Assembly: GCA_041653075.1 (NCBI GenBank)
Contig: JBAZFZ010000004.1
Span: 2,699 to 66,698 of the forward strand
Direction of reading: 5' to 3'
DNA from: Methanoregula sp.
GTDB taxonomy: Archaea; Halobacteriota; Methanomicrobia; Methanomicrobiales; Methanospirillaceae
DNA: 64,000 bases
Part shown: piece by piece, positions 21,525 through 42,472 of the stretch
How the letters are laid out: each line of letters opens with the position of its first letter
Position numbering within the stretch: position 1 is the first letter of the stretch
Program-made: the position numbers and the translations under genes
The notes under the pieces: model-generated
Told to the model about the DNA's origin: nothing
Databases searched by the model: none
The model's input: only the letters and a program-made list of their open reading frames with translations

Positions 21525-21742
21525 GTCGTTATGCTTTCTGTATATGAGACGACATTATTTAGTAAGTTCTGATCCTGCCACGGCTTACGGGTACTGATAT
21601 CTCATCATTCTGCCTCTTTTACCCGGTGGATCGTAATTTTCAGATGCGTTTTAATTTTCGGCTGCAATGCTTTTTTACATGAAACCTGCTTAAAAACGAC
21701 GTTTGAAAAAGAAAAAAAAATTGGTTTTGGGGACGATCGTGC

Positions 21743-23452: not shown

Positions 23453-23457
23453 AGTAA

Positions 23458-24222: not shown

Positions 24223-24229
24223 TGTTAAA

Positions 24230-24865
24230 TCACTCCAGTTTTTCTTTCTTTTTTATGAGTTTCATTACCGCCGAAATGACATCGGCCATCTTTTCGCGTG
24301 TGGGGGTCTGGCCGCGAGTCACGCCACTTACGATTGCCATCACGGTACCTTTGGTCCGGATTTTATCGGCGGGTGGCATGACATATGCGGTCTTCACGCC
24401 CTCTTTTGCAAGATCCTCGTAATCAATCGGGGATTGGGAAACGACAACTGCCTTTATGTCGCACGCAGAGAGGATGAACCTGACCTTGTGGACAACATGG
24501 GAACGGACATTTCCATGATGAAGGATGGCAACTTTGTGTTTCTCGATTTGTACAACTTCTTTTTCCGTAAGCCCGAAGTAAGCACCAAGTGCGGAACCAG
24601 CGATATTTGGGGCATCTGGCGGGACGCCGCTTCCCGCGTTGAGCACCAGCGTGCTGATGCTGTATTCGACACCATGCTGCCGCAGTCCTGAGGTTATATC
24701 GCAGACCGGCTTTGTAACATGGCGGCGGCCCGGAGACATCCCGACAACAATTACATCGGGATACCTGCATTCGGAGATGGTACCGCGCTGGGCGATACCT
24801 CCGCCTTTTCCCATGCCCATTGCCTCGCGGCAGTCCACTACCTGGGTTACCCGTCCGATAGGCAT
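24230..24865 (-). CDS. mcrC: Methyl-coenzyme M reductase operon protein C
   Basis: VVDCREAMGMGKGGGIAQRGT, SPGRRHVTKPVCDIT. Confidence 0.97.
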   Translation of the reverse strand: MPIGRVTQVVDCREAMGMGKGGGIAQRGTISECRYPDVIVVGMSPGRRHVTKPVCDITSGLRQHGVEYSISTLVLNAGSGVPPDAPNIAGSALGAYFGLTEKEVVQIEKHKVAILHHGNVRSHVVHKVRFILSACDIKAVVVSQSPIDYEDLAKEGVKTAYVMPPADKIRTKGTVMAIVSGVTRGQTPTREKMADVISAVMKLIKKKEKLE

Positions 24866-24867
24866 AC

Positions 24868-25338
24868 TTACTTGATTCCCTGGATGATTACCGGTCCTGA
24901 CCGGCTCTTTGGATCAGATAATCCGAGAATATCCTTGTCCGCATTTGGTCCATATTTTGCGTAATCGACCAGGGATGGCGAAGTTTTCATGTATTTGCCT
25001 TCCTGGAGGCGGACAGTAAATTCGGTGATTACCTCTTCACACGCTTTTTTGAGTGCAGGAATTGCGTCGCGGGATTCGAGTTCAAGCAGGATGGTACCTA
25101 CATGAACCTGAAGCTCAAGCTCCTCTGTTCCGACACGGATGTCTCTCCTCATGGAATGCGGATTGGGCGTTCCCCGTGCCGGTCCGTAGGGGACTGTTGC
25201 GGGAAGACGCGGACCGTTTAAGACCATCCGCCGGATACCACCTGCCTTGAGCAGGTTGTTAAGGAGCCGTTCCACGGTCTCCGGGTTGAGCAGCCGCTCG
25301 GTTATAATCCTGCACTGCGGGAACGTGGCTTCTGTCAT
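24868..25338 (-). CDS. mcrD: Methyl-coenzyme M reductase operon protein D
   Basis: RLLNPET, GPRLPATVPYGPARG; lies between mcrB and mcrC. Confidence 0.96.
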   Translation of the reverse strand: MTEATFPQCRIITERLLNPETVERLLNNLLKAGGIRRMVLNGPRLPATVPYGPARGTPNPHSMRRDIRVGTEELELQVHVGTILLELESRDAIPALKKACEEVITEFTVRLQEGKYMKTSPSLVDYAKYGPNADKDILGLSDPKSRSGPVIIQGIK

Positions 25339-25360
25339 TTGGATCAACGTTTAAAGGGCC

Positions 25361-26674
25361 TTATACACCCTTTGCGATGGTCTGCAGCGGCTTCTTGAAT
25401 GCCTCGATCTGTCCAAATGTGTCCTCGTAAACCTTACTGGTTCCTTCAGGGCTGAACATCTGGGTACCTGCATCAAGTGCGCAGGCTGCAACGATACACG
25501 GCATACCGACACCGGCTGCATGCCGGGTCACGACGTGGTTACCGTTAAAGACACCGGGGCCGCCGCCACCATAGATCGAGTGGCTGAAGAACGAGAACCC
25601 GACTGCGACACCCATGGTGCGGCCGAAGTCTGAGCCTGGGAGGCCGGTCTCGTGCTCAAGCAGATCGTTGAAGTACAGCAGGGTCGCGGAAACAGCCTGT
25701 GCGAACCGTCCTGCACCGCAGTTGACCATTGTTGCTGCGAGAGTACCTGCGGAAGCATATGCGTTCCACATCATCGGGTCCTTGGTCTCGTAGAAGATGT
25801 AGCCGCTCTTGCCCTTCTTGCCTGCCTTGATGACTTTGTCTTCAATGGCACGCTCGACAAGGCTCTGGACGACAGTACCGACAGTGCCGGTCTTGCCGTT
25901 CTTCTTAACGAGGTCGTAGACCATGTTGTTTGCGTTAAGACCCTGGTATGCGTAGAGAAGGAGCTGTGCACGCTCGAACGGGCCAACTGCTGCGCCCATT
26001 TCGAATTCACCGGCCTGTTCAAAGGTTGAAGCGAGTGCTGCACCCTGCATTGCATTCCGGTGGGTCATCATGACCGCGTGGTTCGCCTGGATGTTACGAA
26101 GTGCGTAACCGAGACCTTCGTTGTTCTGCGGGATGGACAGAATCGAAACGACGTTTCCACCCTGCATGTCCATTGTCTGAGGGTAGGTACCCCAGACGGC
26201 ACCCTTGACGTATGCACCGTCGAACATTCCAACCTTGTACTGTTCGAGAAGAGCATAGGTAGTTGCTGCTGCAACGCTTGTGGATGTAGCATCGTAGGTT
26301 GCTGCTGCCTTGATACGTGCAGATGGAACCTCGACAAGAAGCATCTTGCCACCGGCGACCTTGGTGATCTTTGTGTCATCGCCATCGGTGACCTGGATCA
26401 TTTCCTTGATCTTGGCTAAGAGTGCATCGCAGTCCTTGACACAGCTGCAGTCGAGGCTGCGGCCGAGGATCTGGTTGGCCTTGCCACCCATCTTACCGGT
26501 CTTGAGTGCAGTTTCGATACCGCTGAGGTTGACTGCTACCGTCCTCTTGGTGAGGTCGATGAGTTCAAGGGCACCCTTGTTTGTCAGTGGACTGATTTTA
26601 TCAATCGTGACGTTGCTCTTTAAGAGCTTCCCCTCATCATCGTAGAGGTCAATTGAATCTTTATATTTCGCCAT
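25361..26674 (-). CDS. mcrB: Methyl-coenzyme M reductase beta subunit
   Basis: IDLYDDEGK, GYALRNI, FSFFSHSIYGGGGPGVFNGNHVVTRH; GGAGG RBS before the ATG at 26674. Confidence 0.99.
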   Translation of the reverse strand: MAKYKDSIDLYDDEGKLLKSNVTIDKISPLTNKGALELIDLTKRTVAVNLSGIETALKTGKMGGKANQILGRSLDCSCVKDCDALLAKIKEMIQVTDGDDTKITKVAGGKMLLVEVPSARIKAAATYDATSTSVAAATTYALLEQYKVGMFDGAYVKGAVWGTYPQTMDMQGGNVVSILSIPQNNEGLGYALRNIQANHAVMMTHRNAMQGAALASTFEQAGEFEMGAAVGPFERAQLLLYAYQGLNANNMVYDLVKKNGKTGTVGTVVQSLVERAIEDKVIKAGKKGKSGYIFYETKDPMMWNAYASAGTLAATMVNCGAGRFAQAVSATLLYFNDLLEHETGLPGSDFGRTMGVAVGFSFFSHSIYGGGGPGVFNGNHVVTRHAAGVGMPCIVAACALDAGTQMFSPEGTSKVYEDTFGQIEAFKKPLQTIAKGV

Positions 26675-26959
26675 ATAATTTCCTCCGAAATTGGATTTGC
26701 CGCTATACAGTACCGTCTTTGAACAATGGTAATGACTAATAGGAACACTGGCTATGAATGAAAGTCGCTTTTGCACGTCCCCTAGATTGGGACATGGAAT
26801 AATTTTCAATTTCGACTTATAAGCGTTCCGATATTGTTCTGGAGAATTGTACTATACTGGCAGGAGAATACTTGGCGAATTCGAAGCAATGTTCAAATAT
26901 CCCATTGAATCCGACACCAGTTGTTCTACTTGATATTACATAATTTTATAGAAGTAGTA

Positions 26960-27026
26960 CTCTGTTGAAAAAACAACCTTAAATTTTTCTATTCCTGGGT
27001 GCGCTCTGTTGAAAAAAAGGTTGTTT
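26960..27026 (-). terminator. Duplicated oligo-T signal downstream of mvhD
   Basis: CTCTGTTGAAAAAA occurs at 26960-26973 and 27004-27017, reading TTTTTTCAACAGAG on the minus strand. Confidence 0.5.
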
Positions 27027-27062
27027 AGGGCAGGATCTTGGCAAAGGATCCTATTTGAGGGT

Positions 27063-27491
27063 TTATTTTTTATTTTCTGAAAGTGGGCTTGGCCCGAGCT
27101 CATTGATGGTGTTTACGACGTCTGTAATGACTGCAGCCCACTTTGCACCTTCTGATGCAGACACAAAGGTCATCCTGAAACGACGGTCGTCGAGGCCGAT
27201 GCTCTTCATGAGCCTCTTTACCATGAACATTCTCTTTGCGGCCTTGAAGTTTCCTTCAAGATAGTGACAGTCCCCGAAGTGACAGCCGGAGACAAGTACC
27301 CCGTCTGCTCCATCGGCAAATGCCTTGAGAACGAAGAGTGAGTCGAACCGTCCTGTGCACATCACACGGATGATCCTGACATCAGGTGGGTACTGGATAC
27401 GACCGCCGCCGGCGAGATCCGCACCTGCATATGAACACCAGTTGCAGACCATCCCAAGGATCTTGGGTTTCCACTCCTTGTTGTCAGTCAT
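27063..27491 (-). CDS. mvhD: [2Fe-2S] Hdr-associated subunit MvhD
   Basis: CNWCSYAGAD, RVMCTGR, GCHFGDCHY. Confidence 0.96.
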   Translation of the reverse strand: MTDNKEWKPKILGMVCNWCSYAGADLAGGGRIQYPPDVRIIRVMCTGRFDSLFVLKAFADGADGVLVSGCHFGDCHYLEGNFKAAKRMFMVKRLMKSIGLDDRRFRMTFVSASEGAKWAAVITDVVNTINELGPSPLSENKK

Positions 27492-29594
27492 TTACTGCTC
27501 ACCTCCGAGCAGGAATGCATCGATCTGTGCAACGATCTGTGGGGTTGCAAAGTGCTGCATCCAGATTGCACCGCCGGGACAGAACCCTCCACAGGTACCG
27601 CAGCCTTTGCATTTTGCTTCGGTGACCTGCATGACCGTGCGGCCGTTCTTTTCCACAAGTGAGAGTGCACTGTACGGACAGAGGTTTACACACATACCAC
27701 AGCCTGCGCACTTTTCTTCAATACACTGGGCGAAGTACGGCTCAAGTTCGACTTCACCCATGTGGATTGGGATACTTGCAGCTGACGCTGCACCTTCTGC
27801 CTGTGCTACCGTGTCAGGGATATCTTTCGGGCCCTGGCAGACACCGGCAAGGAAGACACCGGCTGTGGTGGTTCCGCACGGGTTCAGCTTCGGGTGGGCT
27901 TCAAGGAGCCAGCCGTCCTGGGAGCAGGAAACACCGAAGAGCTTCCTTGTCCGGTTGGTATCTGCCTTGGGTTCGATTGCTGCAGCAAGAACAACAAGGT
28001 CGACTTCCATGTCAACCGGGCGGTCGAGCAGGGTGTCATCTGCGTACACGTGGAGGTTCTTGGTCTTGGGATCCTCAAGGATGTTTGCCACACGGCCGCG
28101 GATAAATTTCGCGCCTTCGTTCTGGATACGGTAGTAGAACTCTTCGTACATCTTACCGAACGACCGGATATCCATGTAGAAGATGTAGGGTACAGCACCC
28201 GGGATTTTCTCGGTGATCTGATGGGCATGTTTCAGTGAATACATGCAACAGAACCGCGAACAATACGGCTTACCTATACCGGTATTGTCTCGTGACCCTG
28301 CACAGAGCACGAAGGCAATACGCATTGGGGTCTGGCCATCGCTTGGGCGGACAAGGTGGCCACCGGTTGGGCCAGATGCGCAGATGAGCCGCTCGAATTC
28401 GAGGCTCGTAATGACGTTCTCGTACCTCTTGTATCCCCACTCCTTTTTATTCTCTATCGGGAAGATGTCGTACCCGGTTGCGAGGATGACCGTTCCAACT
28501 TTAACTTTAATGAACTCATCCTGCATGTCGAGGTCGATAGCCCGCTTCTCGGGACCGCACGCGGTCACGCACAGGCCGCACTTGACACAGGCATTGAAGT
28601 CTATGGTGTAAATAAGGGGAACGACCTGCGGATGGTTGATGTAGATCGCCTTCCTCGGCTTCATGCTAATCTCAAAGGCGTTAGGCTTGATAACCGGGCA
28701 GACCGCATCACAGTCACCGCAACCGTTACAACCTCCACCGATAATGCCCTTTGCGGCTGCTTCCTTCGGTGTCATTACACCTCGTGCTTTCTTGCGGATG
28801 GTGACCTCGAAGTTACCGATGTATCCTTCGACTTCGTGGACCTCGGACCAGGTCATAAGTTCAATGTTGGGGCTCCTGCCGACATCCACCATCTTTGGGG
28901 TTAAGATACACTGCGAGCAGTCGAGTGTCGGGAAAGTTTTATCGAGCTGGGACATACGCCCGCCGATGCTCATGTCGGATTCAATGAGGTAGGTCTTGAT
29001 CCCTGCTGCTGCAAGATCGAGTGCTGCCTGCATGCCGGCGACACCGGCTCCGACGACCATCGCTGTCTTTTCGACAGGCACTGACTTCGGGTAAAGATCC
29101 TGAAGGAGTGCAGCTTTTGCAACTGCGATCCGGACTGCATCCTTTGCTTTCTCGGTTGATCCTTCCCGGTCATGCATATGCACCCATGAGTTCTGGTCAC
29201 GGATGTTTGCCATCTCAAACCGGAACGGATTTAAGCCTGCATCCTTGGTTGCCGTTCTGAAGGTTGGCTCGTGGAGACGGGGCGTGCATGCAGCAACGAC
29301 GATACCTGTCAGGTTGTGCTCTTTTGCCGCTTTTTGAATAAGTGTCTGCCCTGGCATTGAGCACATGTACTTGTAGTTATCGACATAGGCCACATGGGGG
29401 ATGGTCTTGGCGTATTCCTGGACTGCGGGGATATCCATTGAGCCGGCGATGTTGGTACCGCAGTGGCAGATGAAAACACCGATACGGGGTTCCTGCTGGG
29501 TAGTTGCACCGGGAGCTGTTACTGGTGCCTCTTTATGGGAGTCCTGTTTCTTGGTCTCGGTCTTTTTAGTTGTTGTTTTCTTCTTTTCAACCAT
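27492..29594 (-). CDS. hdrA: Heterodisulfide reductase subunit A
   Basis: RIGVFICHCGTNI, AACTPRLHE, GAGVAG FAD motif, DKTFPTLDCSQC, CSRFCCMY, ferredoxin motifs. Confidence 0.98.
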   Translation of the reverse strand: MVEKKKTTTKKTETKKQDSHKEAPVTAPGATTQQEPRIGVFICHCGTNIAGSMDIPAVQEYAKTIPHVAYVDNYKYMCSMPGQTLIQKAAKEHNLTGIVVAACTPRLHEPTFRTATKDAGLNPFRFEMANIRDQNSWVHMHDREGSTEKAKDAVRIAVAKAALLQDLYPKSVPVEKTAMVVGAGVAGMQAALDLAAAGIKTYLIESDMSIGGRMSQLDKTFPTLDCSQCILTPKMVDVGRSPNIELMTWSEVHEVEGYIGNFEVTIRKKARGVMTPKEAAAKGIIGGGCNGCGDCDAVCPVIKPNAFEISMKPRKAIYINHPQVVPLIYTIDFNACVKCGLCVTACGPEKRAIDLDMQDEFIKVKVGTVILATGYDIFPIENKKEWGYKRYENVITSLEFERLICASGPTGGHLVRPSDGQTPMRIAFVLCAGSRDNTGIGKPYCSRFCCMYSLKHAHQITEKIPGAVPYIFYMDIRSFGKMYEEFYYRIQNEGAKFIRGRVANILEDPKTKNLHVYADDTLLDRPVDMEVDLVVLAAAIEPKADTNRTRKLFGVSCSQDGWLLEAHPKLNPCGTTTAGVFLAGVCQGPKDIPDTVAQAEGAASAASIPIHMGEVELEPYFAQCIEEKCAGCGMCVNLCPYSALSLVEKNGRTVMQVTEAKCKGCGTCGGFCPGGAIWMQHFATPQIVAQIDAFLLGGEQ

Positions 29595-29604
29595 GTTTCC
29601 CACC

Positions 29605-30528
29605 TCACAGCACCTTCTGCAGGAATGGTTCGCAGCTGATTGCATGGAGATCCAGTCCAAGTTCCTGCGGGCTCATGCCCTGTGCCAGTCCCAGCAGCTC
29701 ACAGTAGTGCAGAACAGGGATGTCATAGCTGACGCCAAATTTTTCCTTGATTTCTATCTGACCGCGGTCAAACTGGAGCTGACAGAACGGGCAGATATTA
29801 GCGAGCGCATCAACTTTTTCTTCAGTGATATTGATAAGTTTCTCGTTGGTGATATCCAGTGAGTGGACGAGATCATACCCCCGCACACCACCGCCAGCAC
29901 CACAGCATTGCATCTTATTACGGTATTCTACGGGAGTTGCACCAATGGCTGCAATCAACTCCTCAAGCCACACCGGGTGTTCTGTGTCTGACATGACACT
30001 CTTTTCGAATTCACGGTCTTTGCGGGGTTTTGTTAAGTGGCAACCATAGTGTACTGCAATCCGTGCACCCGTCAATGGTGTGACAATACTGTCCTTGATC
30101 TTGCTGACACCAACGTATTTCTCATTGTACATCAGTTCGGCGATGTGATAGACATTACAGGTGCCCTTGTATTCCATGTCAATTTCCTTGAGCACCTCGT
30201 TGACGCCGTCACGAAGATCCTTGTTGTGTTTAAGCTTGTGGTTGACTTCCCATATGGATTTGTAACAGCCGTTGCAGAGCAGTGCAATATCCATCTTCAT
30301 CTGTTCTGCAAGTACGAGATTGCGGGCAGCCATTGCATACCAGACATTGAGATCGATTGCTCCAAATGCCCCGGGAGCCGGGCAACAGCTGGCTCCCTTG
30401 AGGGGAACAAGATCAATCCCAAGTTTTTTACAAGTTTTGATTGCTGCCGCTTCACATCCCGGGTACCGGTTCGGTGCAATACAGCCCAGATAGAATGCGA
30501 ACGTGTGGTTTGCTTTGGATTCAGACAT
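29605..30528 (-). CDS. hdrB: Heterodisulfide reductase subunit B
   Basis: Two CCG domains (SCCPAPG...CNGC and QCCGAGGG...CPFC). Confidence 0.97.
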   Translation of the reverse strand: MSESKANHTFAFYLGCIAPNRYPGCEAAAIKTCKKLGIDLVPLKGASCCPAPGAFGAIDLNVWYAMAARNLVLAEQMKMDIALLCNGCYKSIWEVNHKLKHNKDLRDGVNEVLKEIDMEYKGTCNVYHIAELMYNEKYVGVSKIKDSIVTPLTGARIAVHYGCHLTKPRKDREFEKSVMSDTEHPVWLEELIAAIGATPVEYRNKMQCCGAGGGVRGYDLVHSLDITNEKLINITEEKVDALANICPFCQLQFDRGQIEIKEKFGVSYDIPVLHYCELLGLAQGMSPQELGLDLHAISCEPFLQKVL

Positions 30529-30534
30529 GGTTGC

Positions 30535-31116
30535 TTATCCCTCCCGTTCCTTGATGATCCTGTCAGCATTTTCCTTCATGTGATAGTGATCGAGGAGTTT
30601 TTGGATCCCGGGCATATATTCAGGATACATATGGGTAGTTGGCGGGTCACGTGTCAGGCCGAGTTTTTCACGGGCTGCACGGTTGACATCATTGTTTGGC
30701 ACACCATGACCGGTTTTATAGATTGCCTGAACGGTCTTGAGGAAGTTCACTGGCACGATATCATGCGTGAACGCTATATTTCTCATTGCCATGATAACAT
30801 CGGTCGGTGCAATATCCCTCGGGCATCGGTCTGTACAGCTGTAGCATGTCGTACAAAGCCACAGATCCGGATCGGTGAGTGCTTCGTTTTCAAGTCCAAG
30901 TACTGCTCTCCGCATGAACTTGCGGATACGGTATGAGCTTCTTGGTGCTGATGGACATGATCCAGTGCAGGTACCGCACTGGTAACACATATGAGCCATC
31001 GTACGTGCTGAGGCCTCGATCCTCTTGACAAAGTCAGGTGTCGAATCTTCACCGTAATACCGCTGATCCTGAAGTTTCTTATCCAGTGCTTCCGGGTAAC
31101 CTTTTGTTCTTGCCAT
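30535..31116 (-). CDS. hdrC: Heterodisulfide reductase subunit C
   Basis: CYQCGTCTGSCP and WLCTTCYSCTDRCPR. Confidence 0.97.
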   Translation of the reverse strand: MARTKGYPEALDKKLQDQRYYGEDSTPDFVKRIEASARTMAHMCYQCGTCTGSCPSAPRSSYRIRKFMRRAVLGLENEALTDPDLWLCTTCYSCTDRCPRDIAPTDVIMAMRNIAFTHDIVPVNFLKTVQAIYKTGHGVPNNDVNRAAREKLGLTRDPPTTHMYPEYMPGIQKLLDHYHMKENADRIIKEREG

Positions 31117-31125
31117 TCTGCTCCC

Positions 31126-32298
31126 TCACGCCTTCTCCATCACTTTTAGTCCGACCTGTCCGGCAATGCCTTCCTTGACCTTGGATGTCCTCTTTGTGCA
31201 GAGTTTCTCCTTGATCTTCTTGAACAGGTCTGTTTCCGTGCCTTTCATGCGGATACCGGTCCTCTGGAGAACAATGATGTCCTCACCCGGACATGCATTC
31301 ACACAGGCACCACACAGAATACAGAAATCCTTATTGACTGCAATTTTTGACTCGATATTGTGGCCCATGTCCGCAGCCGGCACTTCACTTGGAAGATAAA
31401 TTGCGTTTGCCGGGCAGATCTCGGCACAGGTTGAACAGCCACCTGGGCATTTCTCAGCGTGGAACTCAATTTCTCCTTCGAAGATCTTTTCGACGGTAAT
31501 CGCCTCGGCGGGACAGCTCTTGGCACACCATCTGCAGGTACAGCAGTTGTCCTTGACAATGCTGACTTTACCTTCAACTTTATCAGAGATGATCTCGCGT
31601 TCAACGGTGATCGCTTCAGTGGGACATGCCTCAACACAAATTTTGCAGGCATTGCACTTTGCTTCGTCCCAGATTACCTCCCCTTCAACTTTGCCGGATT
31701 CCGGAGAGAATTCCTTGTGCTGGACCTTGAGTGCCGGACAAAGAGCTCCGCACAGACCACAGACCGTACACTTTTCCTTGTCGACCGTGAATGTCGTCTT
31801 GGACTTGATAGCGGTGTGGCGTTCTCTGCCTCCTGCAACCGGGCCTTTGTAGGTTCCTTCGAAAGCCGGGACATTGCGATCGATTGCGTCACGGGGGCAC
31901 ACTTCCTCGCAGGTCGTGCACCTGACACATTTCTCATCGTCAATCTCTGCTTTCATATCGTACTGCGGGAATCCTTCTTTTTCAAGGATCGGGAGCCGCT
32001 CTTCTTGGTTGACCTTCAGCGTTAATGCATTGAAGGGGCACATTACAACGCATACACCACAATACGAGCACTTTGTCTCGTCAACTTCAATCGGGGCTGC
32101 GTAGTTAATAGCACCTCTGCGGGCTGCACCAACAAGTCCAAGGACGATTGCCTCCTCGGGACATGCTTCTGCGCAGATTCCGCAACCTGTACAGGCTTCT
32201 GAATTCAGAATCAGGTTGTTAACATCCTGAAGGAGACGCTGCTCCATCACAATGTTAATCCCATCCCTCTTTTTGGAAAACTTTGGAAACAATGCCAT
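31126..32298 (-). CDS. fwdF: Formylmethanofuran dehydrogenase polyferredoxin subunit F
   Basis: Eight CxxCxxCxxxCP-type motifs in 390 aa; adjacent to hdrC as in Methanomicrobiales Fmd-Hdr clusters. Confidence 0.85.
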   Translation of the reverse strand: MALFPKFSKKRDGINIVMEQRLLQDVNNLILNSEACTGCGICAEACPEEAIVLGLVGAARRGAINYAAPIEVDETKCSYCGVCVVMCPFNALTLKVNQEERLPILEKEGFPQYDMKAEIDDEKCVRCTTCEEVCPRDAIDRNVPAFEGTYKGPVAGGRERHTAIKSKTTFTVDKEKCTVCGLCGALCPALKVQHKEFSPESGKVEGEVIWDEAKCNACKICVEACPTEAITVEREIISDKVEGKVSIVKDNCCTCRWCAKSCPAEAITVEKIFEGEIEFHAEKCPGGCSTCAEICPANAIYLPSEVPAADMGHNIESKIAVNKDFCILCGACVNACPGEDIIVLQRTGIRMKGTETDLFKKIKEKLCTKRTSKVKEGIAGQVGLKVMEKA

Positions 32299-33775: not shown

Positions 33776-33866
33776 ATCTCTTTTTGTGTTATTTTTCTTC
33801 AGTTTACCCAGTCTATATATAGGGTTAATGCCGATTATTTTGTTAACGAAAATTTCGGCGATAACC

Positions 33867-34823
33867 ATGATCACCCTTACTCCCGAGGAAGTGAAGGCCC
33901 GGTTCGGGCAACTTTTCTCAAAGAAGTTCCTCGTTATGGTAGATGAACAGGCAGGATTTGCAGAGATCATCGAGCAATGCCAGGCACGCGGTACCATTGA
34001 ATGGGATGCGATGAACCGGCGCCGGGCCGGGGGAGCTGTGGCTTCCTGTGATGTGGAGGGAAGCACGATGACTCTCCGGGCACATCTTGGCCACCATCCG
34101 GTCAACTTCGGGCCAGCAGCCGGTTCGATTGGTGGCCAGGCACTGGAGGCCGTTGAAGTGGACGGCGACACTGTTGTGACCACCTGGTCCGGTATCGCCG
34201 GGGCCGGTGTTGGCATTGCAGCATGTCTCCCCCAGGCACCCGGCGTCATCCGGGCTGAGTACCCTTCAGAAGATGACCTGAAAATCGGAGGAGCCCGTAT
34301 GAATCACGTGCGGATTGTCTCGCCGCTCTACGAGAAGGTATGTTTCGGGATCGATGACACCGATACAAAAGCCGAAGGTGCGACCTGGGTCATGGCCCTC
34401 AAGTGCGCCGGTGCCTGCACCGTTAAAGGTGTGGAATTTCTTAATATGCGCCTTGTCCAGCTCAACCCGAAAGTGCCGAACAAGACCACCAACTGTGTCG
34501 GATCGGCCCTCAATTTTGCAGCACGGCCGGAGAGTATTCCCGCACTCAAGGAGTTCGTCCGTTCATTTGTTGAGAAGAACTCGGTCTCAAAGGACACGGG
34601 GATCGCGTTCTACCGTGGCCTCTCGCTTAAGAAGGATTCCCCCCTGCTCAAAGGGATCAAGACCGAGATCCTCTCCCTTGAACCGGTCGAGTTGGAAGCA
34701 AAGCGCCTGGGTATCGAGTACCTTGACGGGAACGGGAGAAAGGGCCGGATTGGGGCGCTTGGTGCCGTACTCTGGGCAAACCGCGGGGTTGAGGCAGCAG
34801 GACTCTATGGCGAACATCTCTGA
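33867..34823 (+). CDS. Methanogenesis marker protein 11-like, paralogue 1 (C-terminal TiaS-like kinase domain)
   Basis: GIDDTD..EGATW, LVQLNPKVPNKTTNC, GRIGALGA; similar to the next gene along its whole length. Confidence 0.8.
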   Translation: MITLTPEEVKARFGQLFSKKFLVMVDEQAGFAEIIEQCQARGTIEWDAMNRRRAGGAVASCDVEGSTMTLRAHLGHHPVNFGPAAGSIGGQALEAVEVDGDTVVTTWSGIAGAGVGIAACLPQAPGVIRAEYPSEDDLKIGGARMNHVRIVSPLYEKVCFGIDDTDTKAEGATWVMALKCAGACTVKGVEFLNMRLVQLNPKVPNKTTNCVGSALNFAARPESIPALKEFVRSFVEKNSVSKDTGIAFYRGLSLKKDSPLLKGIKTEILSLEPVELEAKRLGIEYLDGNGRKGRIGALGAVLWANRGVEAAGLYGEHL

Positions 34824-35703
34824 CCCGTACAGCATCCGCTACCATAGGATCGTGGCGTTAGCGGATGGATCCGGCAGCCGGGTCGAACTTGTGGAATTCT
34901 TCGACTGTGTCGGCGGGGCAATGTGGACACAGTACCACTATGCAGAGAGCCCGCTTGTTGAGAGCGTCCGCTGTGTCGGCGCAACGAGCCGATTCCTCCT
35001 CAAACCGGGGTCAGTCAACCTCGCACTCGAAGGATCCCGTTTTCCGGCAGGGATTTCCGGCATTACTGTTTCGGGCGACGAAATTGCCGTTACCTATATA
35101 GGCATGGGTGGTGGGGGAGTCGGGGCGACGACCTGTCGGGCGGCTGCAAAAGGCGTGCTGCGCGAACACTGCGATCCCTCCGGGGGGGGAAAGGTAGCCT
35201 CGGCAACGCTCTGGCTGCCACGCATGCAGCGGGTGCTTATCGGTGTTGACGATACCGATACGCCCGAAGCCGGGGCAACCTGGACCCTTGTCCACAATAT
35301 TGCACAGGCCGTCGAAGATGAAGATGCAATATATCTATCCCATACGATAGTCCAGCTCTACCCGGTTCCGTACCGGACCAAGAACTGTGTCGGGCTTGTC
35401 GTTGAGTTTGCCACAACCAGCCCGGACACGCTTATCGAACGGTTCCGAAGCCTTCTTGAAAAATACACCCTGTCGGAAAAGACCGGCATGGCGGCGTACA
35501 CCGGGTTTGAACCTTCAGAACACCTGGAAGCGTACGGCTGGAATGTCAAACGGGGCGAGGTCAGCCCGGGCCTTATCGCACAGCTTGACGACAATGATCT
35601 CCGGATCTGCATGAACGGCCGTGGGATTGTCGGTGCTGTAGCGGCAATTCCCTTTTATACGAGATATAATGAGGCGCTGGAATTATGCGATGGCAAGACA
35701 TAA
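34807..35703 (+). CDS. Methanogenesis marker protein 11, paralogue 2 (C-terminal TiaS-like kinase domain)
   Basis: ATG at 34807 overlaps the upstream gene by 17 nt; GMGGGGVGA, IGVDDTDT..GATW, IVQLYPVPYRTKNC, GRGIVGAVAA. Confidence 0.85.
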   Translation: MANISDPYSIRYHRIVALADGSGSRVELVEFFDCVGGAMWTQYHYAESPLVESVRCVGATSRFLLKPGSVNLALEGSRFPAGISGITVSGDEIAVTYIGMGGGGVGATTCRAAAKGVLREHCDPSGGGKVASATLWLPRMQRVLIGVDDTDTPEAGATWTLVHNIAQAVEDEDAIYLSHTIVQLYPVPYRTKNCVGLVVEFATTSPDTLIERFRSLLEKYTLSEKTGMAAYTGFEPSEHLEAYGWNVKRGEVSPGLIAQLDDNDLRICMNGRGIVGAVAAIPFYTRYNEALELCDGKT

Positions 35704-36653
35704 AAGCGCGGCTTCTTGAAGCAGGATCGGCACGGCTCATCGGTGAACCGGCTAACCGTTACATCGCAACATCGACTGCGGGCCCGGGAGCCGGGGGTCT
35801 GGGTTCGATCTTCTTTGCGATGGGAAGCCACCGGGTGAAATTTGCACTTAACCCTGAAAGCAGCATCGAGATTGTCCACCGGGGCGGGGGCGTGGCCGAC
35901 CTCTATTATAATGACCAGCAGGTCTCCGGGAGGCTCCTTGAACCCGGACTTCACTGTCCGGACCAGGCGTTTATTACCGTCACCGAAAATTGCATCTTCC
36001 ACTGCACCTATTGCCCGGTGCCAACCCATCCCGGGAAACGCAAATCCGTGCGGGAGATCATGGACCGTGTCGAATCCGTCCGCCACCGGATCACTGCAAT
36101 TTCCCTGACAAGTGGGGTGATGGGGAGCATTGAAGAAGAGGAGGCTTATGTCTGCGAGGTTATCCGCCACTTAACGTTTTTTGATCTCCCCATTGGTGTT
36201 TCGATCTACCCGACCGATCAGACGCCGGACCGGCTCAAGGAGCTCGGGGTTACCGAAGTAAAGTTCAACATCGAAGCTGCGACCCCCGGACTTTTCGCAA
36301 AAGTCTGCCCGGGGCTCGATTACGACCGTCTCATGAGTGTGCTTGACCGCTCCGTAGAACTCTTCGGGCGGGGCAGGGTGTACTCCAATGTCATCATCGG
36401 CCTTGGGGAGACCGATGAGGAAATGAGGGCCTGCATCTCCCGGCTTACCTCTCACGGGGTGATCCCGGTGCTTCGTCCGCTCAATCCGGTGGCAGGGTTT
36501 GCCGGGAGCAGCCGGCCTTCGGCCGAACGGCTCAAAAAGATCTTTTCCCTGCACAGTATCTCACTCAAAAGTGCCGGCCTTGACACGACAAAGGCCCTGA
36601 CGATGTGTACACCCTGTGCCGGTTGTGATCTTGTCCCGGGGAGGGATGAATGA
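35685..36653 (+). CDS. Radical SAM protein (biotin-synthase-related, MSMEG_0568-like) with C-terminal CxxCxxC
   Basis: STAGPGAG, HCP, CIFHCTYC, FNIE, IIGLGET, C-terminal CTPCAGC. Confidence 0.85.
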   Translation: MRWQDIKARLLEAGSARLIGEPANRYIATSTAGPGAGGLGSIFFAMGSHRVKFALNPESSIEIVHRGGGVADLYYNDQQVSGRLLEPGLHCPDQAFITVTENCIFHCTYCPVPTHPGKRKSVREIMDRVESVRHRITAISLTSGVMGSIEEEEAYVCEVIRHLTFFDLPIGVSIYPTDQTPDRLKELGVTEVKFNIEAATPGLFAKVCPGLDYDRLMSVLDRSVELFGRGRVYSNVIIGLGETDEEMRACISRLTSHGVIPVLRPLNPVAGFAGSSRPSAERLKKIFSLHSISLKSAGLDTTKALTMCTPCAGCDLVPGRDE

Positions 36654-37921
36654 ACGGTGCGGCAGCGCTTGCGGAAGCACTCCACAGCTGTACTGACTAT
36701 CAGTATACCGTACCCGGTTTTCCCATCACGGAAGTCGGCACCCTTACGGGAGCAACCCTTGCGGTCAATGAAAAAACTGCATTAGAGTATGCTCTCGGGG
36801 ATTCCCTTGCCGGGAAACGGGCTGCTGCGATTATCAAGAATGTCGGGGTGAATGCATGTGCCGACCCGCTGGTCAATGCAACTGCGCAGGGGCTTATTGG
36901 CGGAGTCCTTCTTGTTGTCGGCGACGATCCTGAAGCGGTCGGGTCCCAGACTGCACAGGACTCCCGGTATTACGGGGAACTGGCAGAGATCCCGGTTCTC
37001 GAACCCGATGAATCGACCCTTTTTGCCGCAGTTGAATTGGCGCTTGAGGCATCAGAAGAGTCCTCCCGTGTCGCTATGCTCCGGGTGACCCCCCGGCTGC
37101 TGGATGCAGAAATGGAGTGGAGACCGGTAAAAAGGCAGGACCGGAAAGGACATCTTTCCCCGCGTGACCTTACCATGAACGGCCGGGTGACTGCCTCACA
37201 GGAACTGTACCGCACCCTGTTTGCCTGGTCGGAGAGTTCTCTGCTGAATACCTGGAATGCAGAACCCCTCGGCGCCGGACCGGCCCCGGGGAAATCCCGG
37301 GTGGTGACCGTTCATCCCGTCCCGGGTCGCGTTTCGGGTTACCTCCGCATAAACGAATGCGGTCGGTCGTTTGTCCGGGACCACCGGGGGGTTATGCCGC
37401 CGGAAATCGGGGGCGCACCCAAAACGCTGAAAAAAAGGGGTTTCTACCGGACATTCTGCAGGGAATGTCCATATAAACTCCTTCTTGACCTTATGAAATC
37501 CCGTGATATGCGGCCGATCTGCGATGCCGGCTGTTCGCTCTATGCAATGAATCCGCAGTACAGTATGGGTCTTGCAAGCTACGGCATGGGTTCAAGCATC
37601 GCAGTTGCCGCCCGGAGCACGCACGTAGCTCTGCTCGGCGATTATGCCCTGCTCCATTCAGGGATCAACGCCCTGATCGATGTGTATGAGAAGAGATTTC
37701 CGCTCCTGTGCGTCGTGATGAGAAATCACTGCGCAGCGATGACCGGAGGCCAGCCTGCAAGCGATCCCCTCCCCTACATTACCTGGGCAGACCCGGTTGT
37801 CTGCGGTGCGGAAGATGAACATCTTCTCGGCAACGTTATCCGGCAGACGGATACACCGGTGACGGTGGTCGTGGAAGCACAGTGTCCCGAGGGAGTACAT
37901 CATGAAACCGTGGAATGTTGA
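36650..37921 (+). CDS. ThDP-dependent enzyme, truncated IorA (indolepyruvate oxidoreductase alpha)-like
   Basis: PGFPITE, NEKTALE, KNVGVN..ADP, GDDP..SQTAQDSR, FCRECPY, DAGC, GDYALLHSG...N..AMTGGQ; no C-terminal ferredoxin domain. Confidence 0.85.
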   Translation: MNGAAALAEALHSCTDYQYTVPGFPITEVGTLTGATLAVNEKTALEYALGDSLAGKRAAAIIKNVGVNACADPLVNATAQGLIGGVLLVVGDDPEAVGSQTAQDSRYYGELAEIPVLEPDESTLFAAVELALEASEESSRVAMLRVTPRLLDAEMEWRPVKRQDRKGHLSPRDLTMNGRVTASQELYRTLFAWSESSLLNTWNAEPLGAGPAPGKSRVVTVHPVPGRVSGYLRINECGRSFVRDHRGVMPPEIGGAPKTLKKRGFYRTFCRECPYKLLLDLMKSRDMRPICDAGCSLYAMNPQYSMGLASYGMGSSIAVAARSTHVALLGDYALLHSGINALIDVYEKRFPLLCVVMRNHCAAMTGGQPASDPLPYITWADPVVCGAEDEHLLGNVIRQTDTPVTVVVEAQCPEGVHHETVEC

Positions 37922-39029
37922 GATCTGTGACGTAACGTTACGGGACGGAGAACAGACACCGGGAGTGTCGTTTTCCTGCGAGGAGAAAGTGGATATCGCC
38001 CGGACCCTTGATGCCATAGGTATCGAGGTTATCGAGGCCGGGTTTCCCGCAGTATCCGATAATGAGAAAAAGTGCGTGAAGACTATCGCAAACCTCGGCC
38101 TTGACTCCAGAATTTGCGGTTTTGCCCGGGCACGGGAACCGGATATCCTGGCCGCGATCGACTGCGATGTGGACATGGTTTCGATCTTTATCCCGACATC
38201 TGATCTTCACGTTCGCCTCAAGTTCAAAAAATCCCGTGAACAGGTCCTTGAAGATGCCCTTGGCATGATCGATTTTGCCCGGGATCACGGTGTAAAGGTG
38301 CGGTTTGCCGCAGAAGATGCCTCACGGACCGATGTAGCCTTCCTCAAGGACGTTTACAATGGTGCTGCAGAGCACGGGGCGCTTCTTGTCAGCTTTGCTG
38401 ATACGGTCGGCTGCCTTGTCCCCAACGAGATGCGCACGATTATGACCGACCTTGTGTCTTCTGTTAAACTGCCGCTGTGTGCCCACTGCCACAACGATAT
38501 GGGATGTGCGGTCGCAAACACGATCACGGCCGCAGATGCGGGAGCCTTCCAGCTCCACACCACGGTAAACGGCATCGGGGAGCGCTCCGGGAATGCATCC
38601 CTTGATGAAGTGCTTGTCATCCTCCGGCAGAAAGGCGGGATCGACCGGTACGACCTCTCGTACCTGACAACCCTATCCCGCAAGGTAGAAAAATACTCGG
38701 GAATTACGCTTCCGAGGAACAAGCCGGTAACCGGTGAACTTGCGTTCTCGCATGAGAGCGGCATCCACATCGCAGCAATCCTTGAGGATCCCAAGAGCTA
38801 CGAGTACTTCCCCCCGGATCTTGTCGGGGGAGAGCGGCACTTTATTCTGGGGAAGCACACCGGGCGAAAAGCACTCGAACATGTTGTCTCGTCCCTCGGT
38901 TACGATCTCTCCGAAGTCCAGATCTGCCGGGTGCTCGATCTTGTCAAGGTGCACTCCGAACAGAAGTGCAGCATAACCCCCAAGATCCTCCAGAAGCTGA
39001 TCCGTCGGGCACAAAAGGAGTCTGTCTGA
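37902..39029 (+). CDS. aksA: Homocitrate synthase family enzyme for 2-oxoacid elongation (AksA)
   Basis: DVTLRDGEQTPG, HCHND, NGIGERSGN, HESGIH; 375 aa, without the C-terminal regulatory domain of LeuA/CimA. Confidence 0.85.
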   Translation: MKPWNVEICDVTLRDGEQTPGVSFSCEEKVDIARTLDAIGIEVIEAGFPAVSDNEKKCVKTIANLGLDSRICGFARAREPDILAAIDCDVDMVSIFIPTSDLHVRLKFKKSREQVLEDALGMIDFARDHGVKVRFAAEDASRTDVAFLKDVYNGAAEHGALLVSFADTVGCLVPNEMRTIMTDLVSSVKLPLCAHCHNDMGCAVANTITAADAGAFQLHTTVNGIGERSGNASLDEVLVILRQKGGIDRYDLSYLTTLSRKVEKYSGITLPRNKPVTGELAFSHESGIHIAAILEDPKSYEYFPPDLVGGERHFILGKHTGRKALEHVVSSLGYDLSEVQICRVLDLVKVHSEQKCSITPKILQKLIRRAQKESV

Positions 39030-40240
39030 TGAGCACGCTCTCCGAAAGGATTCTTGGCGCACATGCCGGGGAATATGTGGACCGGAACGTTGACCGGGCC
39101 TATGTCCACGATGGGACCGGAGTCATTGCTCTTGAATCCTGGAAACAGATGGGAGGCGACCGGCTCGGGAAAGATACCCGGTATTATGTCCTCTTCGACC
39201 ACATTGTCCCGGCAAACAATGGTACGACCGCAACCCTCCAGCAAGAGCTTCGGGATTATGCAAAGAAATCCGGAATGCAGTTCTCCGATATCGGCGGCGG
39301 CATCTGTCACCAGCTCATGAGCGAGGGCATCGTCCGGCCCGGGGAGGTTGTTGTCGGTGCAGATTCGCACAGCGTCACAGGTGGGGCATTCGGGGCATTT
39401 GCCACGGGAGTCGGAGCAACCGATATGGCCGCAATCTGGCTGACCGGTGAGACCTGGTTCCGTGTCCCTGAGTCCGTGGGGATCCATCTTGCCGGCAGAC
39501 TATCAGGAGCTGCCGAAGCAAAGGATCTTGCCCTTATGTATGTCGGGAAACTGGGGACTGACGGGGCGACTTACCAGGCCCTCGAATTTATCGGAGAGGG
39601 TATCCGGAGCCTCTCCATGGATGAGCGCCTGGTGCTTTCCAACCTTTCTGTGGAAGCCGGGGCAAAGGCCGGGCTTTTCTATGCTGACGATGTGACCGTT
39701 CGTTACCTTAAGGAACAGGGTTGCGAAGCTGCCACGCAGGATATCGAACCCTGTGCCTATGCTCGGGAGCTCGATCTCGATCTCGCGGATGTCGTCCCTC
39801 TTGTGGCGGTCCCCCACCGGGTGGACACGGTAAAACCCGCAGACGCCTTGGCCGGGCTCGCTCTTGACCAGGTCTTTGTCGGGACCTGCACGAACGGCCG
39901 GTATTCCGATCTCGCCCGGTTCGCACGGCTGGTCAAAGGCAAAAAGGTCGCGGTACGGACCATTGTTATCCCTGCTTCGGCAGCCATCCTTGAGAAAGCG
40001 ATCATGACCGGTGTGCTCGCTGATATCGTGAAAGCCGGGTGCACCATAGGTACTCCCGGGTGTGGCCCCTGCATCGGGTACCACATGGGAGTTCTCGGGG
40101 AGGGCGAGGTCTGCCTCTCCACTGCGAACCGCAATTTCAAAAACCGGATGGGTGTCGGCGGCGAGATCTACCTTGGCTCGATTGCCACCGCCGCTGCAAG
40201 CGCCTTAAAAGGTGAGATAACCTCACCGGAGGCTGCCTGA
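39029..40240 (+). CDS. aksD: Homoaconitase large subunit
   Basis: HDGTG, DSHS, GTCTNGR, PGCGPCIG, NRNF; TGATG coupling to aksA. Confidence 0.85.
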   Translation: MSTLSERILGAHAGEYVDRNVDRAYVHDGTGVIALESWKQMGGDRLGKDTRYYVLFDHIVPANNGTTATLQQELRDYAKKSGMQFSDIGGGICHQLMSEGIVRPGEVVVGADSHSVTGGAFGAFATGVGATDMAAIWLTGETWFRVPESVGIHLAGRLSGAAEAKDLALMYVGKLGTDGATYQALEFIGEGIRSLSMDERLVLSNLSVEAGAKAGLFYADDVTVRYLKEQGCEAATQDIEPCAYARELDLDLADVVPLVAVPHRVDTVKPADALAGLALDQVFVGTCTNGRYSDLARFARLVKGKKVAVRTIVIPASAAILEKAIMTGVLADIVKAGCTIGTPGCGPCIGYHMGVLGEGEVCLSTANRNFKNRMGVGGEIYLGSIATAAASALKGEITSPEAA

Positions 40241-40710
40241 TGCAGGGACATGGAAAGGCCGTCTGCCTGCCTGCCGATATAGATACCGATATTGTCATTG
40301 CGGGCCGGTACCTGCGGACCAGGGACCGGAGCATCTGGGGTGAACATGTGTTTGAGGACCTCGATCCGTCCCTTGCCCCCCGGTTGAAAGGTGCCGTGAT
40401 TGTTGCCGGGAAAAACTTCGGGTGCGGTTCATCGCGGGAACAGGCAGCGATTGCGATCCATGAAGCAGGCGTTGTCGCTGTTATCGCCCCCTCGTTTGCG
40501 AGGATCTTCTTTAGGAACGCGATCAACATCGGCCTCCCGCTCATCGAGTCGGATATGACCTGCACGGATGGAGGTGAAATCGGGTTCAGCCTGTCAGAAG
40601 GCTGGGTTCGGTGTGACGGAAAGCAGCACGCGATTCGCCCCCTATCCCCCCGCATGCAGGAGATCCTCAATGCAGGCGGGCTTGTGGAATACTGGAGGTC
40701 CCACCGGTGA
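40240..40710 (+). CDS. aksE: Homoaconitase small subunit
   Basis: IDTDIVI, NFGCGSSRE; YLRT loop characteristic of methanogen homoaconitase small subunit rather than LeuD. Confidence 0.88.
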   Translation: MQGHGKAVCLPADIDTDIVIAGRYLRTRDRSIWGEHVFEDLDPSLAPRLKGAVIVAGKNFGCGSSREQAAIAIHEAGVVAVIAPSFARIFFRNAINIGLPLIESDMTCTDGGEIGFSLSEGWVRCDGKQHAIRPLSPRMQEILNAGGLVEYWRSHR

Positions 40711-41507
40711 TTTTCCCCGAGCACTGCAAGTTCGTGGGGCTTGCGACGACAAAACCCTGTGGCGACCGGGTCTATACCCTGAGCAGGTACCTACTCCGGG
40801 AGGTAAGCGAAGGATACGAGCTCATTGAGGTTACGCTGGATCCGACAGAAAAGACGGTCATGCGGGATATCGCCGCCTCCCGGATCCTTGCGACCCCGGG
40901 CGAGATTTACCGGTATCCGGAGAGAGTCCGGCTCAACGACCGGGCCCGGCTGGTTCGGCTCGCCCTTGAATCCGGGTACCGCTGCACGGTCTTTACCGGC
41001 CTTGAGGAAAACATGACTTTTGTGCTTGACCCCGATCTCTCCGGGTTTTTGACGGTGCATGTCTACGATGTTATCCCGCCCCGGCCAACCCTTTCGGCAA
41101 GTATCCGTGAGATAGAGGAGATCGGGCTCTTTGGTGATCTCTCCGTGGTCTTCGAGCATCATGTCCGGGACATTTCGAAGATTCCCGCAGATATCTATCC
41201 CTGCCGGGCCGCCGGCTATCCACGGACGCTGGATGCAGACTCCTTAAAAAGCGGCGACCTGGTGGCAGGATGCCTCACGGCAACGCAGCTCTGTACTGAG
41301 GTCTACGGGAAGGAGTATACGCTTGAGAATATCTGTCCGCTGGAACAGGTCAAAGAGGAGCCGTTTATCGCCCGGTGCTGCCGTTTAGAACGTGAAGGCG
41401 TGGGGATCTGGCACGGGAAATACGGTGCCATCGTCCACTGGGGTGCAAGCCCGGCAAAGATCTTCCGGTCCGTGCAGGAGCTTGTCGGCCAGTGGAGGGA
41501 AAAATGA
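40707..41507 (+). CDS. Cys-rich hypothetical protein inside the aks operon
   Basis: GTGA and ATGA overlaps on the two sides; motifs DVIPP, YPC, GC, ICP, RCC, VHWG. Confidence 0.85.
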   Translation: MIFPEHCKFVGLATTKPCGDRVYTLSRYLLREVSEGYELIEVTLDPTEKTVMRDIAASRILATPGEIYRYPERVRLNDRARLVRLALESGYRCTVFTGLEENMTFVLDPDLSGFLTVHVYDVIPPRPTLSASIREIEEIGLFGDLSVVFEHHVRDISKIPADIYPCRAAGYPRTLDADSLKSGDLVAGCLTATQLCTEVYGKEYTLENICPLEQVKEEPFIARCCRLEREGVGIWHGKYGAIVHWGASPAKIFRSVQELVGQWREK

Positions 41508-42472
41508 CAAAGATTGCCGTTGTCGAAGGTGACGGGATCGGCCACGAAGTGATCCCGGTCGCACAAAACGCCCTTGCCCTGCTCCACCCGGAATACGAGT
41601 TTTTCCCGGTGGATGTAGGATACGGACGGTGGGAAACGACCGGCTGCCCCTGTTCTGACGATGAGATTGCGGCGCTCAAAACTGCGGACGCTGTTCTGTT
41701 CGGGGCGATAACAACTCTTCCGATGAAGGATTACCAGAGCGTGGTCCTGCGTATACGAAAAGCTCTCGATCTGTATGCGAACCTGCGGCCGGTGAAAGGC
41801 GACAATTTTGACATTATGATTGTCCGGGAGAATACCGAGGGCCTGTATTCGGGAATTGAAGAGAGCACGGAGGACCGGGCGACTACGCTCCGGCTTGTGA
41901 CCCGCACCGGTTCGGAACGGATAGTACGGTCTGCACTCCATCTTGCGAAATCACGTTCGGGTAAACTCACCATCGGCCATAAGGCAAATGTACTCAAGTC
42001 CGATGTCTTTTTCCGGGATATCTGCATTGCAGAGGTAAAAGATACGGGAATCTCGTGCAACGACAAGTTCATCGATGCCCTGGCCCTTGATGTCCTCCAG
42101 CACCCGGCTGCATACGATGTGATCGTGACAACCAACATCTTTGGCGATATCCTCTCGGATGTCGCATCGTACCTTGTCGGGGGCCTGGGGCTTGTCCCGA
42201 GCGCCAATGTCGGCGACCGGTATGCCCTCTTTGAACCGGTTCACGGCAGCGCCCCGGATATTGCCGGGAAAAATATCGCAAATCCCATAGCGGCCCTCCG
42301 AAGTGCATCGATGCTCCTTTCCCATCTTGGGGACCGTAAAGGAGCCGGTCGGATCGAATCTGCCATAGCTGCAGTGCTTGCATCCGGTATCCGGACCCGG
42401 GACCTTGGCGGATCGGTCGGGACCGTGGAATTTGGCGGGGCAGTCATCCGGGCACTTGGCTTGACTTCCTGA
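41504..42472 (+). CDS. aksF: Homoisocitrate dehydrogenase (AksF)
   Basis: GDGIG.EV, GAITT...YQSVVLRIRK (HICDH-type), RENTEGLYSG, HKANVL, NIFGDILSD, EPVHGSAPDIAG. Confidence 0.85.
   Translation: MTKIAVVEGDGIGHEVIPVAQNALALLHPEYEFFPVDVGYGRWETTGCPCSDDEIAALKTADAVLFGAITTLPMKDYQSVVLRIRKALDLYANLRPVKGDNFDIMIVRENTEGLYSGIEESTEDRATTLRLVTRTGSERIVRSALHLAKSRSGKLTIGHKANVLKSDVFFRDICIAEVKDTGISCNDKFIDALALDVLQHPAAYDVIVTTNIFGDILSDVASYLVGGLGLVPSANVGDRYALFEPVHGSAPDIAGKNIANPIAALRSASMLLSHLGDRKGAGRIESAIAAVLASGIRTRDLGGSVGTVEFGGAVIRALGLTS

Follow-up and report, generated by a model that had tools for sequence, protein, structure and literature searches.

Which enzymes complete the synthesis of coenzyme B (CoB), the electron donor of methyl-coenzyme M reductase (MCR) that methanogens and anaerobic methane and alkane oxidisers need? 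We know of no enzyme that has been identified as forming the amide bond or the phosphate of CoB since the pathway was followed by isotope tracing around 1990. A locus of Methanoregula sp. raises this question again. It lies in a 64,000-nt stretch of contig JBAZFZ010000004.1 (assembly GCA_041653075.1, positions 2,699 to 66,698 of the forward strand), hereafter called the window, in which two paralogous genes of the methanogenesis marker protein 11 family, here named B and A, stand at the head of an operon with CoB precursor genes. By domain architecture, homology and fold, both products carry the kinase module (TCKD) of the tRNA-modifying enzyme TiaS, and both the operon and its neighbourhood are conserved. 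We tentatively propose, at a probability of roughly 0.45, that A and B are dimeric TCKD enzymes that activate a late CoB intermediate with ATP, both performing the same chemistry.

Of the steps of CoB synthesis, PMC3087415 assigns only those of the Aks enzymes, and PMC12068725 proposes that COG1900 enzymes are redundant but essential and likely take part in CoB biosynthesis. Our literature search returned no paper assigning the CoB amide or phosphate steps or a function of marker 11, and the supplements of two Methanosarcina transcriptome papers contained no marker-11 entry.

Two tandem marker-11 proteins with a TiaS-type kinase module

Gene B (33867-34823, + strand; P0001, 318 aa) encodes a divergent marker-11 paralogue according to its TIGR03280 and TiaS_TCKD scores, and gene A (34807-35703, + strand; P0002, 298 aa) encodes the canonical marker protein 11 according to TIGR03280. 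Their reading frames share 17 nt, and the coordinates agree with those of an earlier reading made from the letters alone (the sequence-only reading). The start codon of B is settled by its first residues, MITLTP, which are kept in 25 orthologues. The sequences nearest to A are Methanoregula entries annotated as marker protein 11. A and B share 37% identity over 161 aa (E 9e-22) and about 27% overall.

Both proteins have two parts: an N-terminal domain specific to the family, which contains a Gly-rich loop, and after it a complete TCKD-type kinase module. In B, the N-terminal domain spans aa 1-155 (33867-34331, +; boundary from the family alignment), with the loop GIAGAGVG at aa 109-116 (34191-34214, +), and the kinase module spans aa 156-318 (34332-34820, +), with the motifs GIDDTD (aa 161-166), GATW (171-174), LVQLNP (196-201), KTTNC (206-210), and GRIGAL (293-298). 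The corresponding parts of A are the N-terminal domain at aa 1-140 (34807-35226, +; from the predicted model), the loop GMGGGGVG at aa 99-106 (35101-35124, +), and the kinase module at aa 141-298 (35227-35700, +), with GVDDTD (aa 146-151), GATW (156-159), IVQLYP (181-186), RTKNC (190-194), and GIVGAV (273-278). All motifs that the sequence-only reading had named were found in both proteins at the positions checked. The matching cysteines that it described held in part: four Cys align between A and B, of which just one, in KTxNC, is conserved in each subfamily. Invariant residues specific to B include W46, N50, R51, R53, Q91, W107, and Q123.

The Pfam model TiaS_TCKD (PF22641) matched B with 48.3 bits and A with 48.1 bits, compared with a gathering cut-off of 27. 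This match spans profile positions 2-62 only; the NCBIfam TiaS model and the alignments of profiles with the PDB span TiaS residues 1-150, which is the entire kinase domain. A profile built from 44 family sequences found the TiaS chains 3au7, 3amt, and 4rvz in the PDB at E values of 2e-13 to 5e-13, and the TCKD-only protein 3u02 at E 6e-23. A single-sequence phmmer search of the PDB with A gave no match, so that TiaS was reached by the family profile alone. In the profile alignment, DDTD corresponds to D8-D11 of TiaS, and the invariant Thr of GATW (T158 in A) corresponds to Thr18 of TiaS. In the 44 family sequences, T150 and T158 of A do not vary, and conservation of D148, D149, and D151 is at least 90%. 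Including the B types, these members show little or no variation in the four TCKD motifs and at the Thr18 equivalent, and the equivalent DDTD and Thr18-type residues are invariant in 26 B-type sequences.

The fold agrees with the homology. The AlphaFold2 model of A had a pLDDT of 93.2 and a pTM of 0.91, and its nine best Foldseek matches were all chains of TiaS or 3u02. Using VIA-align, the model was superposed on 3amt_A with Z 18.4 and an rmsd of 2.4 Å over 153 aligned residues and on 3u02_A with Z 14.8; the next unrelated chain had Z 6.9. B was modelled within the A+B complex only, with a pLDDT of 84-88. The structural match to the TiaS kinase domain, on which the sequence-only reading had staked its proposal, was thus found. 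We conclude that A and B are TiaS-type TCKD proteins, with a likeness far beyond chance.

A and B are not TiaS itself. Membership in the TiaS family (NF040849) was rejected because the tRNA-binding domains are missing and the scores are far under the equivalog cut-off of 600 bits (33.7 bits for B, no match for A). As the sequence-only reading had stated, neither protein has an OB fold or a Zn ribbon: no such Pfam domain was found in either, and the model of A stops with the TCKD. On contig 44, a further open frame of about 470 aa gave the strongest TCKD match in the genome (72 bits) and is read as its true TiaS. TiaS of known structure (PDB 3amt, 3amu, 3au7, 4rvz, 5xob) shares with the window proteins the full TCKD and the motifs GxDDTD, G-x-T, LxP..P.KT.xN, and GxxGA, whereas the OB fold and Zn ribbon occur only in TiaS and the N-terminal domain of 140-155 aa only in A and B. 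The gene neighbours of A and B are also metabolic enzymes and not tRNA-related genes. PfR225 of Pyrococcus furiosus (3u02) resembles A and B in having a TCKD without tRNA-binding domains, but it lacks the marker-11 N-terminal domain.

That N-terminal domain was modelled with confidence (residues 1-140 of A, pLDDT 91.6). When compared with 48,161 representative PDB chains, its best Z was 5.5, which is the noise level. ESM Atlas clusters with this fold were limited to those in which TiaS_TCKD is a common Pfam family, forms fused to a helix-turn-helix (HTH) domain among them. No known fold can be named for the predicted domain, and absence of a match does not prove novelty.

The two-domain architecture common to A and B is that of marker protein 11 (TIGR03280, 'imperfect marker 11', formerly DUF1743). 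A scored 334.2 bits with TIGR03280, above the cut-off of 255.8, and covered model positions 2-291 of 292; B scored 181.5 bits, under the cut-off, yet aligned over positions 4-289. Sequence comparison places B in the same superfamily as A but in a subfamily of its own, as a deep paralogue. The family is small: of 1.84 billion cluster representatives, 161 matched it at E 1e-3 or better. A quick tree separated five groups: A (27 representatives) with a sister group, B, the HTH-fused type C, a further small group, and TCKD-only proteins. The B clade had an SH-aLRT support of 95 in this tree, and it also contains the sole copy of Methanomassiliicoccales.

The marker-11 operon and its conservation

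B and A head a nine-gene operon on the + strand. They are followed by genes for a radical SAM (rSAM) enzyme (35685-36653; variant-rSAM, MSMEG_0568, or LipS2-like by family models; 19-nt overlap with A), a truncated IorA-like thiamine diphosphate (ThDP) enzyme of 423 aa (36650-37921; TPP_enzyme_C and a partial IOR_alpha match), an AksA-type homocitrate synthase homologue (37902-39029; HMGL-like and HCS_D2 domains, LEU1_arch and homocitrate synthase models), the large (38966-40240; HacA/AksD type) and small (40240-40710; HacB/AksE type) subunits of homoaconitase, a DUF7714 protein (40707-41507; PF24830, 282 bits), and an AksF-type homoisocitrate dehydrogenase homologue (41492-42472), the homoaconitase subunits and the dehydrogenase being assigned by family models. 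Start and stop overlap almost throughout, the overlaps along the operon being 17, 19, 4, 20, 1, 4, and 16 nt. The AT-rich gap of 91 nt between ftr and gene B contains TATATATA (33814-33821, +), read from the sequence as a possible archaeal TATA box about 46 nt 5' of the ATG of B.

We collected related loci by a degenerate DNA pattern search and surveyed presence and absence in 250 genomes of the phylum, grouped into families that are denoted here by f-numbers. The nine-gene arrangement recurs, with small variations, in loci of all six Methanomicrobiales families sampled, and the same operon occurs in named metagenome-assembled genomes (MAGs) of five genera (Methanoregula, Methanoculleus, Methanogenium, Methanocorpusculum, and Methanospirillum). 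In Methanosarcinaceae and Methanotrichaceae, marker 11 adjoins the ThDP enzyme; in Methanobacterium and Methanobrevibacter, hacA-hacB-aksF lies about 2 kb upstream of it; and in a 'Thermococci' MAG it adjoins an AksA-like gene. Linkage of marker 11 to aks genes is therefore seen in more than one lineage, namely Methanomicrobiales, Methanobacterium/Methanobrevibacter, and the 'Thermococci' MAG. The case for a role in CoB synthesis rests mainly on the operon together with this recurrent aks linkage, and the conserved operon and the partial linkages in four other lineages support a late role in that pathway. Marker 11 also adjoins the rSAM gene in Methanomicrobiales, in families f14, f16, f30, and f8, in Archaeoglobaceae MAGs, and in an Acidimicrobium MAG; in Methanosarcinales, the rSAM orthologue is present but unlinked. 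Across the survey, marker 11 tracks McrA in most families, f7 having both in 37 of 37 genomes.

On the 5' side of the operon lie ftr, hdrA2, hdrB, hdrC, a polyferredoxin gene, mcrBDCGA, and the gene of the MCR glutamine C-methyltransferase, those upstream of ftr occupying 20205-32298 of the window on the - strand. The distance from the operon to mcrBDCGA is about 7 kb, and the CoB consumer, heterodisulfide reductase and the aks operon are found together within about 22 kb. The DUF7714 gene is kept in the operon across Methanomicrobiales and is divergently placed in family f6; its product weakly matches the XcbA family (NF052538, 51 bits, cut-off 150), which is named after the bacterial coenzyme M cluster. 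In Methanobacterium oryzae (L081:3294-4511, +), a class-V aminotransferase gene (cysteine-desulfurase-like fold family) and ribH are located between aksF and marker 11.

Lineages with one or both subunit types and a predicted dimer

The sequence-only reading had divided the last two CoB reactions between the two proteins. The distribution of the subtypes speaks against this division. A search with a B-type profile in five Methanomicrobiales genomes, which include a Methanoregula record titled chromosome and one genome that is 98% complete, gave only A-type, C-type, and TiaS matches and no B. Several Methanoregula loci pass from ftr directly to A. The Methanosarcinales-type and other non-Methanomicrobiales families sampled mostly have a single marker-11 copy, which is of the A type at every Methanosarcinales and Methanobacteriales locus read. 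Conversely, five Methanomassiliicoccales/Thermoplasmata genomes have a single copy of the B type, 40-44% identical to B. A-only, B-only, and both-type lineages thus exist, all of which need complete CoB, and a split into one ligase and one kinase is therefore unlikely. One subunit type suffices, and no catalytic motif has been lost in either subfamily; most simply, A and B would do the same chemistry rather than one step each.

We modelled A and B as a complex, for which the sequence-only reading had suggested a heterodimer. The model reached an ipSAE of 0.75, versus 0.01 for the best of three controls; of 80 solved complexes, 58 attain this mark, as do 2 of 110 mismatched pairs. The model thus passes its controls, with the proviso that close cousins of a true partner can pass too. 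At least 61% of the contacts agreed between model runs, and the partner pLDDT was at least 84. In the predicted interface, the Gly-rich loops (A 100-105, B 110-115) face the DDTD/GATW loop and the KTxNC segment of the partner (A 151-160 and 190-195; B 172-175 and 206-211). The model suggests that the active sites are completed in trans, and A and B probably form a dimer.

Further family members and nearby genes

Type C has the same N-terminal domain and TCKD body as A and B (TIGR03280 104.6 bits; Atlas TM 0.79-0.85 on the N-terminal domain). Unlike A and B, it carries an N-terminal winged-helix domain and adjoins homoserine dehydrogenase, and it is probably a regulator. An example of 379 aa is encoded in the Methanomicrobiales genome G022 (L039:5938-7077, -), and scores across Methanomicrobiales are about 100-130 bits. 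Type C was not found in this Methanoregula MAG, whose assembly is 75.6% complete in 88 contigs. At a distance of about 13 kb from the marker-11 operon, genome G022 also encodes a TCKD-only protein of 233 aa (L040:4761-5462, -), whose gene has as neighbours an amino-acid-kinase-family gene and a gene of 271 aa of no identified family.

In a record titled Syntrophorhabdaceae bacterium chromosome, a B-type gene (L102:2909-3889, +; 45% identical to B) lies between IS1595- and DDE-type transposase genes, and a frame with a weak PTA_PTB match overlaps part of it; this copy may reflect horizontal transfer or mis-assembly. Genome G085, in which no McrA was found, has a cysteate-synthase-like gene (L031:11620-12804, +; 273 bits, cut-off 325) 1.7 kb from its marker-11/rSAM pair. 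The genes around the pair in the MAG of Acidimicrobium ferrooxidans match no family. In G137, a genome of family f15, a short duplicated rSAM fragment with an internal TAA (L169:4008-4349, +) lies just upstream of the intact copy.

Discussion

How might two such proteins act? TiaS is reported by Terasaka et al. (2011) and Osawa et al. (2011) to phosphorylate a carbonyl oxygen before amine attack and to autophosphorylate its Thr18. At the head of the operon, A and B would be translated together, and they would pair so that the Gly-rich loop of one chain caps the DDTD/Thr loop of the other, as a heterodimer here and as a homodimer in lineages with one type only. Reasoning from TiaS, we infer that ATP would serve to phosphorylate a small molecule on an oxygen of a carbonyl, carboxyl, or hydroxyl group, and the gene context makes a late CoB intermediate the most likely candidate. 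Our best guess is that the C7 acid would be activated as an acyl phosphate for amide formation with threonine, possibly followed by O-phosphorylation of the threonine in the same active site. In its full form, marker 11 would be the missing CoB synthetase: it would convert 7-mercaptoheptanoate to the acyl phosphate, join this to threonine, and then phosphorylate the threonine hydroxyl, in a dimer completed in trans with A and B as interchangeable subunits. We consider this full form possible but doubtful. If true, it would be a reuse on a small molecule of the activities that TiaS has on C34 and on its own Thr18.

Several observations weigh against activation of a CoB intermediate. That the operon is conserved within one order amounts to one evolutionary observation only, and the dimer model does not distinguish a heterodimer from a pair of homodimers. 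The only marker-11 copy of Methanomassiliicoccales, of the B type, adjoins a metallo-beta-lactamase (MBL)-fold hydrolase gene, not aks genes; from the same loci, a place for this copy in the mcr-marker cluster was rejected. Marker 11 matched 16 of 47 genomes in family f8, where McrA was found in 5 of 47, and two complete f8 genomes without detected McrA carry marker 11 at 365 and 344 bits. In both of these, marker 11 overlaps an MSMEG_0568-type rSAM gene and adjoins a divergent thioredoxin reductase gene. A ThDP-enzyme orthologue was not found in f8 with the window enzyme as query. Sulfate reduction was considered for the MCR-less f8 carriers, and no DsrA was found in the two complete genomes. 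The Acidimicrobium ferrooxidans MAG (L064:719-2754, -) has marker 11 at 322 bits overlapping an MSMEG_0568-type rSAM gene at 275 bits, and a Nitrososphaerota MAG has marker 11 at 321 bits without the rSAM gene. Family f15, conversely, has a divergent McrA in 14 of 23 genomes and marker 11 in 1 of 23; a search of four f15 genomes at E 0.01 found TiaS only and no marker 11. Two of those four retain the rSAM orthologue, and a search of f15 rSAM neighbourhoods for a replacement ligase gave an Amidohydro_2 protein, transporters, and unrelated genes. These carriers in f8, Acidimicrobium, and Nitrososphaerota, all of them above the TIGR03280 cut-off, together with f15, refute the idea that marker 11 is confined to, and universal in, methanogens or MCR-bearing archaea. 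The chemistry of the family extends beyond CoB users, and at least one MCR lineage either does without marker 11 or has something unrecognisable in its place. Of the link to CoB drawn in the sequence-only reading, the shared operon with CoB precursor genes stands, and exclusivity does not.

A serious rival is a broader function of marker 11 with its rSAM partner, in which the pair would form a general module of sulfur chemistry. The TCKD protein would supply an activated carbonyl for thiolation, or a substrate made ready for sulfur insertion by the rSAM enzyme, and the module would make the thiol of 7-mercaptoheptanoate in methanogens and another thiol or thio-cofactor elsewhere. No linkage is conserved more widely than that of marker 11 with the rSAM gene, which reaches MCR-less archaea and a bacterial MAG; the rSAM enzyme weakly matches the LipS2, LipA, and BioB models, and the thioredoxin reductase gene beside the pair in the two f8 genomes would suit such a module. 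Yet the matches to sulfur-inserting families are far under their cut-offs, the rSAM gene is unlinked in Methanosarcinales and occurs without marker 11 in f15, and COG1900 enzymes are already proposed for a role in CoB biosynthesis (PMC12068725), so that this module, serious as it is, is on balance unlikely. Activation of some other product of 2-oxoacid elongation, or of an unrelated metabolite, would account for the members outside CoB users and for the near absence from f15, leaving the CoB link only apparent. We regard it as decidedly unlikely, since linkage to aks genes or to the ThDP enzyme of the aks operon recurs in several orders and, as far as we know, 2-oxosuberate has no established product in methanogens other than CoB.

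Two other assignments appear very improbable. One paralogue might ligate 7-mercaptoheptanoate to threonine and the other phosphorylate the threonine, both being needed for CoB; the two active-looking, translationally coupled copies, the description of TiaS as both an RNA and a protein kinase, and the heterodimer model that passes its controls would fit, but the five Methanomicrobiales genomes without detected B, the mostly single-copy families of A type elsewhere, and the five Methanomassiliicoccales genomes with B only argue against it, since all these organisms need CoB. The substrate might equally be a macromolecule, with marker 11 as a protein kinase, a modifier of MCR or another methanogenesis protein, or an enzyme acting on an RNA other than tRNA-Ile2. 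TiaS acts on RNA and on its own Thr18, whose equivalent is invariant here, the operon is close to mcrBDCGA and adjoins hdrA2BC, and an HTH-fused paralogue exists. However, A and B have no nucleic-acid-binding domain, the gene is outside the mcr-marker cluster at the Methanomassiliicoccales loci read, the conserved neighbours are small-molecule enzymes, and members occur in MCR-less organisms.

Under any of these readings, the MCR-less carriers, the bacterial carrier, and the MCR lineage without the gene need explaining. The marker 11 of aks operons is a small, archaea-centred family that offers concrete candidates for expression and assay. If the assignment to CoB synthesis is true, these proteins would be a methanogen-specific target for inhibitors in methane mitigation, and the TiaS kinase fold, for which tRNA modification is the only known use so far, would also be used on metabolites.

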